The notes under the pieces: generated by a model
Database searches by the model: none
Seen by the model: the letters and a program-made list of their open reading frames with translations, nothing else
What the model was told of the DNA's origin: nothing
Part shown: piece after piece, positions 25,886 to 54,705 of the stretch
Numbering within the stretch: the stretch's first letter is position 1
How the letters are laid out: each line of letters begins with the position of its first letter
NCBI RefSeq assembly: GCF_016026235.1
Contig: NZ_CP065613.1
Reading direction: 5' to 3' (one strand)
DNA from: Escherichia coli
Lineage (GTDB): Bacteria; Pseudomonadota; Gammaproteobacteria; Enterobacterales; Enterobacteriaceae
DNA: 64,000 nucleotides
Position numbers and translations under genes: made by a program

Positions 25886-26428
25886 ATGATTATCTATTTA
25901 CACGGTTTTGACTCTAACAGTCCGGGTAACCACGAGAAAGTCTTACAATTGCAGTTTATTGACCCGGATGTACGCTTGATAAGCTACAGTACGCGGCATC
26001 CGAAACATGATATGCAGCATCTGCTTAAAGAAGTGGACAAAATGTTGCAACTGAACGTTGACGAGCGTCCGCTAATTTGCGGCGTTGGCCTGGGCGGATA
26101 CTGGGCGGAACGGATTGGTTTTCTTTGCGACATCCGCCAGGTGATCTTCAACCCTAATTTGTTCCCTTATGAGAACATGGAAGGCAAGATTGATCGCCCG
26201 GAAGAGTATGCCGATATTGCCACTAAGTGTGTGACCAACTTCCGCGAGAAGAATCGCGATCGTTGTCTGGTTATTTTGTCGCGTAATGATGAAGCACTTA
26301 ACAGCCAGCGGACATCTGAAGAGTTGCATCATTATTACGAGATTGTCTGGGACGAAGAGCAGACGCACAAATTCAAGAATATCTCCCCGCATTTACAGCG
26401 CATTAAAGCGTTCAAAACCCTCGGGTAA
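25886..26428 (+). CDS. ycfP: UPF0227 esterase-like protein YcfP
   Basis: Start set at [18 protein letters not shown] (about 180 aa); alpha/beta-hydrolase-like. Confidence 0.8.
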
Positions 26429-26429
26429 A

Positions 26430-26565
26430 TGCCCTCGTCGCATCAGGTAACCTTGCCGGTACCTGATGCGCTCCGAATTCTGTAAGTCGGATAAGGCGTC
26501 CACGCCGCATCCGACAGTCGAGCATCAATGCCTGATGCGATGCTGCGCATCTTATCAGGACGACC
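26430..26565. repeat. REP/BIME cluster
   Basis: Several palindromic units (catcaggtaaccttgccggtacctgatgcg; gccgcatccgacagtcgagcatcaatgcctgatgcgatgctgcgcatc) in the ycfP-ndh gap. Confidence 0.6.
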
Positions 26566-26835
26566 AAACGCCCTCGATATACGCTTCACCCTATATTACT
26601 CTTCCGAATTTGCTCAAATAATAAACAATAAACTCTATTTTTTGATCTCACCCGGTAAAGTCGCCTATCTTTTCAGCAACAAAACTTGATTAACATCAAT
26701 TTTGGTATGACCAATGCACCATTCATGTTATTCTCAATAGCGAAGAACATTTTCATTGCTGTAACCTGTTGTTAATTAAGAGCTATGTTAATAACCATTA
26801 ATTAACAATTGGTTAATAAATTTAAGGGGGTCACG

Positions 26836-28140
26836 TTGACTACGCCATTGAAAAAAATTGTGATTGTCGGCGGCGGTGCTGGTGGGCTGGAAATGGCAAC
26901 ACAGCTGGGGCATAAGCTGGGACGCAAGAAAAAAGCCAAAATTACGCTGGTCGATCGTAACCACAGCCATCTGTGGAAACCGCTGCTGCACGAAGTGGCG
27001 ACTGGCTCGCTTGATGAAGGCGTCGATGCGTTGAGCTATCTGGCCCATGCGCGCAATCATGGTTTCCAGTTCCAGTTGGGTTCCGTCATTGATATTGATC
27101 GTGAAGCGAAAACAATCACTATTGCAGAACTGCGCGATGAGAAAGGTGAACTGCTGGTTCCGGAACGTAAAATCGCCTATGACACCCTGGTAATGGCGCT
27201 GGGTAGCACCTCTAACGATTTCAATACGCCAAGTGTCAAAGAGAACTGCATTTTCCTCGATAACCCGCACCAGGCGCGTCGCTTCCACCAGGAGATGCTG
27301 AATCTGTTCCTGAAATACTCCGCCAACCTGGGCGCGAATGGTAAAGTGAACATTGCGATTGTCGGCGGCGGCGCGACGGGTGTAGAACTCTCCGCTGAAT
27401 TGCACAATGCGGTCAAGCAACTGCACAGCTACGGTTACAAAGGCCTGACCAACGAAGCCCTGAACGTAACGCTGGTAGAAGCGGGAGAACGTATTTTGCC
27501 TGCATTACCGCCACGTATCTCTGCTGCGGCCCACAACGAGCTAACGAAACTTGGCGTTCGCGTGCTGACGCAAACCATGGTCACCAGTGCTGATGAAGGC
27601 GGCCTGCACACGAAAGATGGCGAATATATTGAGGCTGATCTGATGGTATGGGCAGCCGGGATCAAAGCGCCAGACTTCCTGAAAGATATCGGTGGTCTTG
27701 AAACTAACCGTATCAACCAGCTGGTGGTGGAACCGACGCTGCAAACCACTCGCGATCCAGACATTTACGCTATTGGCGACTGCGCGTCATGCCCACGTCC
27801 GGAAGGGGGCTTTGTTCCGCCGCGTGCTCAGGCTGCACACCAGATGGCGACCTGCGCAATGAACAACATTCTGGCGCAGATGAACGGTAAGCCGCTGAAA
27901 AATTATCAGTATAAAGATCATGGTTCACTGGTATCGCTGTCGAATTTCTCCACCGTTGGTAGCCTGATGGGTAACCTGACGCGCGGCTCAATGATGATTG
28001 AAGGACGAATTGCGCGCTTTGTATATATCTCGCTATACCGAATGCATCAGATTGCGCTGCATGGTTACTTTAAAACCGGATTAATGATGCTGGTGGGGAG
28101 TATTAACCGCGTTATCCGTCCGCGTTTGAAGTTGCATTAA
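26836..28140 (+). CDS. ndh: Type II NADH:quinone oxidoreductase NDH-2
   Basis: FAD-binding motif [10 protein letters not shown] and a second Rossmann motif [10 protein letters not shown]; start set at the TTG (MTTPLKK) to give about 434 aa. Confidence 0.9.
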
Positions 28141-43940: not shown

Positions 43941-45077
43941 TTACTTGTGTTCTTCATCAGCCAGTACGACCTCCCAGCTTTCTACCCAATTAATGGCCAT
44001 TTTTTGGTCGAGAGAGTGGTCAAAGTCAGGATCGTCTTCATTGAAGAATTCGCTGACCATCACCATCTTGCCATTTTCCAGTTCAACAACCGACTCCAGC
44101 GTCATGCCTTTGTAGTTACGCTCACGAACGTAACCAATCAGCCCTTCAGCGTGGTTGTCGTCGTTAATCTCTTCAACACGTAAGTCTTCCGGGCGCAGCA
44201 GAACATGCAGTTTTTGCCCCGGTTCTACGGCGAAGTTAACGTAGATATTACATTCGCGGCCTTCAACGTTGGCGCGTACGCGCTGCTCGTCGAGACGTTC
44301 GATAACAGTGGCGTTAAACATATTGATTTCGCCAATGAACCCGGCAACAAACAGGTTTTTCGGCTCTTCGTAGATTTCACGCGGCGTGCCGTCTTGCTCA
44401 ATGCGACCATCGCGCATCACCACAATCCTGTCTGACATGGTGAGTGCTTCTTCCTGATCGTGAGTCACGAAGACGAATGTAATGCCAAGCTTACGCTGTA
44501 ACGCTTTCAGCTCGTTCTGCATTTGCTTACGCAGTTTGTAATCCAGCGCTGAGAGCGACTCATCCAGCAACAACAGACGAGGCTTGTTAACCACCGCGCG
44601 AGCAATGGCGACGCGTTGCTGTTGACCACCAGAGAGCTGATGCGGTTTACGTTGAGCGAAGGTTTCCAGCTGCACCATCCGCAGGGCTTCCATCACGCGG
44701 GGCGTAATTTCAGCAGCGGGGGTTTTTTGCATGCGCAACCCAAAGGCCACATTTTCGAACACGGTCATGTGGGGGAAAAGTGCGTAGCTTTGGAAAACAG
44801 TGTTCACATAGCGGTTTTCCGCCGGAACGTGGGTGATGTCCTCGTTATCCAGCATGATGCGTCCGGAATCAACAGTTTCCAGACCTGCAATCAGGCGAAG
44901 AACGGTTGTTTTACCGCAGCCAGAAGGGCCAAGCAGCGTGAGGAACTCGCCATTGTTGATAGTCAGATCCAACTGGGGAATGACCTCTTTACCATCAAAG
45001 CATTTGCGAATTCCCGCCAATTGCACCAGCGGTGAAAGCGAACTCGGTTGTTTATTCAATTTTTTACTCTGTCCCAT
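43941..45077 (-). CDS. potA: Spermidine/putrescine ABC transporter ATPase PotA
   Basis: 378-aa ORF with Walker [10 protein letters not shown] and signature LSGGQQQR. Confidence 0.93.
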
Positions 45078-54533: not shown

Positions 54534-54705
54534 TATAGCCTAATAACGCGCATCTTTCATGACGGCAAACAATAGGGTAGTATTGACAAGCCAATTACAA
54601 ATCATTAACAAAAAAATTGCTCTAAAGCATCCGTATCGCAGGACGCAAACGCATATGCAACGTGGTGGCAGACGAGCAAACCAGTAGCGCTCGAAGGAGA
54701 GGTGA

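Follow-up and report, generated by a model that had tools for sequence, protein, structure and literature searches.

The promoter of ndh is a textbook case of layered control, in which FNR, ArcA, PdhR, Fis, IHF, and NsrR take part. The product of the gene is an NADH dehydrogenase that pumps no protons, and the level of this enzyme sets how efficiently the aerobic respiratory chain works. Operators that act as roadblocks in a transcribed leader are familiar from other systems, for example, lac O2 or the purR-type sites at +50 to +100. The majority of ArcA repressor sites overlap their promoters and are believed to act by occluding them, whereas the ArcA site assigned to ndh lies 46-77 bp downstream. 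In the tables of Park et al. 2013 (PMC3798270), this site occupies 1165260-1165291 (minus strand), and its repeats, at 1165288/277/266, score 3.6, 12.5, and 8.0 bits (Table S4); its position relative to the transcription start is 46/77 (Table S7). The same work gives an 18-bp ArcA box for ndh, ttgttaattaatggttat, of 18.7 bits on the minus strand (Table S3), and ArcA ChIP-seq/ChIP-chip peaks at 1165227 and 1165239 with heights of 11.9 and 11 (Table S1). Rolfe et al. 2012 (PMC3411108) found that repression of ndh in vitro, from a template carrying the site, is seen with ArcA~P but not with unphosphorylated ArcA, and they list predicted ArcA sites at -57, +36, +52, +57, +66, and +68.

The direction of the ArcA effect on ndh in vivo is disputed. 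Table S7 of Park et al. 2013 (PMC3798270) enters it as '+[13], -[43]', with the 'previous DNA binding' column empty for ndh. The ΔarcA/wild-type ratio for ndh is -1.7 in anaerobic growth on glucose, a change not scored as significant, and activation of ndh by ArcA was suggested by an earlier array study. The small size and disputed sign of the effect of the arcA deletion probably reflect the action of FNR and PdhR on this promoter. In an H. influenzae arcA mutant, ndh is up 11-fold, showing that ArcA control of ndh reaches beyond the Enterobacteriaceae. Other proteins that bind in the ndh promoter region are IHF, HU, and NsrR.

The window analyzed here is a stretch of 64,000 nucleotides of E. 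coli DNA (contig NZ_CP065613.1), and the part of interest is the thiK-nagZ-ycfP-ndh region. Of 5426 complete E. coli genomes, 5425 contain a match to the segment 26430-26900, and the gene annotated there is ndh; the open reading frame from 26836 (TTG ACT ACG CCA) encodes the 434-aa Ndh, NADH:quinone oxidoreductase II. Thus, the preliminary description was right in naming the gene as ndh with a TTG start. A longer ndh frame, from 26809, appears in the list of open reading frames because the list begins at the first TTG past a stop codon. Across species, the start codon is TTG in 66 of 79, ATG in 7 (the Kluyvera group), and GTG in 6 (Enterobacteriaceae loci). In the minimum-energy fold, a small GUCA-CGU-UGAC stem surrounds the ndh start codon at 26831-26841.

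From 26743 to 26838, the window and K-12 MG1655 are identical at 96/96 bases, so that the ndh leader of the window is the K-12 leader, and this stretch is at least 95% identical in 5425 E. coli genomes. By comparison with the value of at least 95% for the leader alone, the identity over 26430-26900 is 90-95% in 3710 genomes. A REP-derived element on the plus strand at 26485-26561, which matches Rfam RF02564 (naRNA4, a nucleoid-associated ncRNA) with 65 bits (gathering score 59.5), follows the ycfP stop codon and precedes the ndh promoter, and the divergence of the ycfP-ndh spacer between strains probably comes mostly from this REP/naRNA4 repeat region. Window positions were converted to those of U00096.2 by an offset of +1,138,472, obtained from the centre of the PdhR box (1165180, window 26708) and from the start of ndh, which we take to be 1,165,308 in that version. 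The offset was cross-checked by comparing the +46/+77 position of Park et al. with the ROSE transcription start.

The ROSE paper, in which transcription starts were mapped in vitro, gives Pndh at 1,165,992 in U00096.3, with the promoter TTGGTA-21-TATTCT. In this version, ndh starts at 1,166,085, which puts +1 at 26743 of the window; this position is consistent both with the +46/+77 of Park et al. and with an FNR site at -50.5. The features of the promoter and the translation start are as follows.

26686-26699, no strand assigned: FNR I site TTGATtaacATCAA, perfect, centre at -50.5, read in the sequence.
26700-26716, no strand assigned: PdhR box ttTTGGTatgACCAATg, overlapping the -35 hexamer TTGGTA (26702-26707).
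26729-26734, plus strand: -10 hexamer TATTCT, from the ROSE paper.
26743, plus strand: ndh transcription start (+1), from the ROSE Pndh and the ndh start; leader of 93 nt.
26824-26830 and 26836-26838, plus strand: Shine-Dalgarno sequence AAGGGGG and TTG start codon of ndh, read in the sequence.

The spacer from TTGGTA to TATTCT (26702-26734) is atypical at 21 nt. A scan of 26400-26900 for promoters (sigma-70 consensus) and terminators found nothing, and the ndh promoter was missed because its 21-nt spacer falls outside the allowed range. An upstream FNR half-site, TTGATctcaCCCGG, is visible at 26642-26655; its centre, -94.5, is presumably the position of FNR II at ndh, and it is conserved within Escherichia only. 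The block made up of FNR I and the PdhR box (AAAACTTGAT..ATCAATTTTGGTATGACCAATG) is invariant in 80/80 species, as is the PdhR box (26700-26716) by itself, and TATTCTC is at least 90% conserved over the same 80 Enterobacteriaceae species. Myers et al. 2013 describe ndh as FNR-repressed through a site at -50.5, and Anzai et al. 2020 (Table 1) list an ndh PdhR box with an 11/14 match centred at 1165180.

The preliminary description pointed to a 34-mer, gttaataaccattaattaacaattggttaataaa, immediately upstream of the TTG, with a near-palindrome and a direct repeat, and these are present as described at 26787-26820, 15 nt 5' of the start codon at 26836. The 34-mer was called an operator upstream of the gene, within 26700-26835. 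That range also takes in the PdhR box (26700-26716), the -10 hexamer, and the start of transcription, and the 34-mer itself sits downstream of +1 (26743): it occupies +45 to +78, in the transcribed leader, ending 4 nt 5' of the Shine-Dalgarno sequence. The direct repeat GTTAATAA has two copies, at 26787-26794 and 26812-26819 (family D3). AACCATT (26793-26799) and ATTGGTT (26808-26814) are complementary at 6/7 positions and 8 nt apart, and the repeat analysis also lists the overlapping inverted repeats I6, I8, I9, and I13.

To obtain chance levels, the 274-nt intergenic stretch was shuffled 1000 times with its dinucleotides preserved. A direct repeat of 8 nt, exact and within 40 nt, turned up in 197/1000 shuffles, so this repeat is not significant alone, and the three 10-nt inverted repeats with at most 1 mismatch are mildly unusual, that number being reached in 34/1000. 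A larger inverted repeat (I1) has 25-nt arms at 26762-26786 and 26791-26815, separated by a 4-nt loop. Its arms are complementary at 20/25 positions, which was reached in 0/1000 shuffles (shuffle maximum, 18/25).

As a check, the preliminary description had suggested comparison with the characterized ndh sites, and this comparison shows that 26788-26819 is the published ArcA-P site base for base. It had also held that the factor cannot be assigned from the sequence. We scored both strands of the 64 kb, about 128,000 positions, with an 18-bp ArcA matrix made from 114 published boxes with the ndh box left out, and this leave-one-out matrix does assign one: the core box at 26791-26808 scores 18.6 bits, the second-best match in the window, where the training boxes range from 9.4 to 21.7 with a median of 15.8. 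The features of the leader are listed here.

26788-26819, minus strand: three-repeat ArcA-P site TTATTAACCAATTGTTAATTAATGGTTATTAA of Park et al. 2013, +46 to +77; the 34-mer element in reverse complement.
26791-26808, minus strand: core 18-bp ArcA box TTGTTAATTAATGGTTAT, two repeats, 11 bp from centre to centre.
26769-26786, plus strand: left convergent ArcA-like box TTGTTAATTAAGAGCTAT, first repeat perfect, second degenerate in E. coli.
26761-26767, minus strand: outer ArcA-like heptamer AGGTTAC, 6.4 bits in the single-repeat matrix, mirroring TGGTTAA at 26810-26816.
26802-26817, no strand assigned: block TTAACAATTGGTTAAT, +60 to +75, invariant in 80 Enterobacteriaceae species.
26762-26815, plus strand: leader RNA hairpin predicted by folding, formed from the two convergent boxes.

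The top match to the matrix, at 54594-54611 on the minus strand (18.7 bits), is the known, footprinted icd site between rluE and icd; it is a positive control, although one that belongs to the training set. The third match, ATGTAATATCTACGTTAA at 44236-44253 on the minus strand (15.4 bits), is inside the potA coding sequence and is probably non-functional. With starts at 26819, 26808, and 26797 on the minus strand, the ArcA repeats of the ndh site follow one another every 11 bp and so have the arrangement of a direct-repeat ArcA box. In window coordinates, the ChIP peaks fall at 26755 and 26767, 20-35 bp upstream of the centre of the dyad.

In E. coli, the left box (+27 to +44) reaches 11.1-11.2 bits; it corresponds to the predicted '+36' site quoted in Rolfe et al. 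2012 (PMC3411108). When scored with a matrix pooled over single repeats, 26760-26820 contains eight ArcA-like heptamers; no 55-bp window of the 64 kb is denser, and the background is 1.78 per 100 bp. Six of these are symmetric about 26788.5, with (-)AGGTTAC, (+)TTGTTAA, and (+)GAGCTAT to the left and (-)TGGTTAT, (-)TTGTTAA, and (+)TGGTTAA to the right. Together, the convergent boxes and the outer heptamers make a dyad of about 56 bp, from +19 to +74. The palindromes and direct repeats are apparent in the leader because the ArcA half-sites (GTTAAT/ATTAAC, TTAATTAA) are nearly self-complementary and there are boxes on both strands.

The Ndh-encoding loci of 80 Enterobacteriaceae species were aligned (alignment A1). 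In 79/80 loci, a minus-strand ArcA box with a score of 15.6-19.6 bits lies 43-46 nt 5' of the start codon; in the 80th (L022), the box is offset by 15-17 nt, and the match of this locus begins at residue 6, so it is mis-anchored. Only positions 8, 12, and 13 of the right box vary among the 80 species, and these carry 0.25, 0.36, and 0.70 bits of information content, while G3, T4, G14, T15, and all of the high-information G/T positions are invariant. Thus, the positions that specify ArcA binding are fixed and the spacer positions are free. In Erwinia persicina, the box is kept at the same distance with 17.9 bits and the block TTAACAATTGGTTAAT is changed to AACGACTGGTTCAC; in a Pantoea species, the box is likewise kept at the same distance, with 16.2 bits, and the block is changed to AACTATTGGTTCAC.

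A strong plus-strand left box (17-21 bits) occurs 65-67 nt 5' of the start in many genera, among them Enterobacter, Leclercia, Lelliottia, and Phytobacter, and also in S. enterica diarizonae. Comparison of the sequences indicates that the left box has decayed in E. coli, to 11 bits. The high-information position 15 of this box is C in 51/80 species. Besides FNR I with the PdhR box, the -10 hexamer, and the block TTAACAATTGGTTAAT, the conserved footprints in the alignment are GTAAC (+19 to +23), which is at least 90% conserved over the 80 species, TTGTTAA (+27 to +33), and ATAAC (+49 to +53), and the conserved ArcA-type heptamers TTGTTAA, TGGTTAT, and TGGTTAA are phased 11 bp apart. By contrast, variation is free in the leader from +1 to +18 and in the 4-9 nt that separate the two boxes. 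The first copy of GTTAATAA falls in the variable loop between the boxes and differs even in one other E. coli genome (L001).

Several other assignments of the element were considered and rejected. There is no FNR site (TTGAT-N4-ATCAA) in 26787-26820, the FNR I site being at 26686-26699. The PdhR box consensus, (A)ATTGGTnnnACCAAT(T) with the core GGTnnnACC, is not matched, as the element has the half-site AATTGGT followed by TAATAAATT. Fur-like and NsrR motifs were rejected by eye against the consensus, and the one-mismatch matches to the IHF consensus were set aside as a pattern too common to serve as evidence. A chance origin of the whole region is ruled out by the large dyad (0/1000 shuffles), the matrix score, and the conservation.

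We conclude that the repeats are very probably an ArcA-P operator in the ndh leader, which would give a redox input to the repression of ndh. Occupancy of this region by ArcA in vivo, the fit of the sequence to the matrix, and repression by ArcA~P in vitro are all demonstrated. Weighing against this reading are the small and contradictory effect in vivo, the downstream position, the offset of the ChIP peaks from the dyad centre, the placing of the weakest repeat in the most invariant block, and the C at position 15 of the left box in 51/80 species. The suggestion of the preliminary description that these are binding sites for oxygen-dependent control is in this respect upheld by the ChIP-seq site of ArcA-P and the in vitro repression, but the units that it proposed are not the conserved recognition units.

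What else might the element be? A symmetric dimeric regulator could bind AACCATT-N8-ATTGGTT or the GTTAATAA repeat, as the preliminary description had it. Both the near-palindrome and the repeat do exist in the E. coli sequence, and AATTGGT (26807-26813) is a perfect half-site when compared with the PdhR box consensus. However, AACCATT is present in only 2/80 species, most having AACTTTT, and two copies of GTTAATAA in only 5/80, whereas what is conserved is the series of ArcA heptamers phased at 11 bp; moreover, an 8-nt direct repeat arises by chance in about 20% of shuffles, and the PdhR half-site has no matching second half. The half-site is embedded in the invariant block, and its mirror, ACCATT (26794-26799), is specific to E. 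coli; the half-site at 26807-26813 is probably coincidental. A symmetric regulator is therefore extremely unlikely. The element might instead be mainly a site for Fis, namely the downstream 'Fis III', which we take to be centred at +51 (about 26793), or for IHF, with ArcA as a minor occupant. One-mismatch matches to the IHF consensus lie at 26762-26774 (-), 26803-26815 (+), and 26806-26818 (-), although this pattern is common, with 91 matches in the 64 kb where about 59 are expected. A study of occupancy in vivo concluded that IHF, PdhR, NsrR, and ArcA are likely to be at the ndh promoter, depending on the conditions. Fis is reported, with Jackson et al. 2004 on ndh among the works cited, to down-regulate some promoters from a site downstream of that of RNA polymerase or overlapping it, or in complexes with other nucleoid proteins. 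However, Fis and IHF tolerate degenerate AT-rich DNA, and they would not alone account for the agreement of the invariant G/T positions with the ArcA matrix. Binding of Fis or IHF is, furthermore, compatible with that of ArcA rather than exclusive of it. Thus, while Fis, IHF, HU, and NsrR may share the leader DNA with ArcA, it is very unlikely that the element is mainly a site for Fis or IHF.

The dyad could also be conserved as RNA, with the AU-rich leader hairpin affecting how stable the UUG-initiated ndh mRNA is or how it is translated, and with the likeness to ArcA boxes as a secondary matter. The predicted hairpin at 26762-26815 has a folding energy of -17.2 kcal/mol (z = -3.97), and 0/200 shuffles fold as well. 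Over the 80 species, 98.5% of cells retain the potential to pair, several imperfect stem positions could form G-U pairs on the sense strand, and inspection by eye of the Erwinia and Pantoea leaders allows a similar stem to be drawn. But 14/21 pairs of the hairpin never vary, and hence are uninformative; the pairing potential is retained because the arms are invariant, not through compensation. Compensatory changes occur at one pair alone (5 C-G, 7 U-G), and 12 species break it; the inner pair 189-200 is a C-A mismatch in 51/80, and the changes in the stem arms of Pantoea are not compensatory. Covariation was evaluated on two structures, and for the extended one, which takes in the inner pairs, 373/500 shuffles equal the observed score. 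The invariance of the arm sequence suggests base-specific recognition over structure. In addition, the stem ends 9 nt 5' of the Shine-Dalgarno sequence and does not sequester it, an E-value scan of 26400-27000 against Rfam gave no family match to the leader (naRNA4 at 26485-26561 was the sole match), and a literature search for regulation of ndh mRNA by an sRNA or by Hfq gave no papers. An RNA role of the hairpin is unsupported by these data, and we consider it quite improbable as the main reason for the dyad. It is improbable, too, that the sequence has a dual use, as an ArcA operator on the DNA together with a functional leader hairpin that tunes the stability or translation of the UUG-initiated mRNA, or together with a site for a second factor. 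Such a dual use is raised by the third ArcA repeat, which is the weakest (3.6 bits) and yet falls in the most invariant block, for which ArcA alone offers no obvious explanation; the block TTAACAATTGGTTAAT is invariant beyond the apparent need of so weak a repeat.

For the preferred assignment, the ArcA-P operator, we infer the mode of action from the leader as follows. When the quinone pool is reduced, in microaerobic or anaerobic growth, ArcB phosphorylates ArcA, and dimers of ArcA-P bind head-to-tail to direct repeats of the TGTTA type with a spacing of 11 bp. The ndh leader has three such repeats on the minus strand from +46 to +77, and a convergent box at +27 to +44. The resulting ArcA-P oligomer may hinder RNA polymerase after initiation, as a roadblock or by blocking its escape. 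Alternatively, the leader complex may cooperate with the ArcA-like heptamers at +19/+33, -18/-12, and -53/-47, and so extend toward the promoter. Unlike ArcA at sites that overlap their promoters, a multi-repeat leader complex would more likely block promoter escape or elongation. In either case, ArcA-P in the leader would add a redox input to the repression by FNR (-50.5, -94.5) and by PdhR (in the -35 region).

The ndh leader repeats were already assigned as an ArcA operator in the literature, so the finding is real but ordinary, and naming them adds nothing new to the picture of ndh regulation. What is added beyond the literature is the deep conservation, through Enterobacteriaceae and Erwiniaceae, the convergent two-box dyad, and the attention to a site so far downstream of the promoter. 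The ndh box is among the best-scoring and most deeply conserved ArcA boxes, and it is suited to the study of how a response regulator represses from a leader.

How does this leader compare with known systems? Like the lac O2 or purR-type sites, the ndh site is tens of bp downstream of +1, in the transcribed region; it differs from them in that ArcA-P at ndh may instead oligomerize back toward the promoter. The right half of the dyad shows no difference from the ndh entry of Park et al. 2013 (PMC3798270), having the same sequence, strand, coordinates, three repeats, and 11-bp spacing, and lying under the ChIP peak. For the two boxes together, the closest case is dctA in the same work, where ArcA-P gives one extended footprint over two opposite-strand sites of two repeats each. 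The dctA footprint is experimental, whereas the ndh dyad is deduced from the sequence, and the ndh boxes are only 4 bp apart in a near-perfect dyad. As at dctA, however, the ndh boxes are on opposite strands within about 50-60 bp, and they could be bound as one extended complex.
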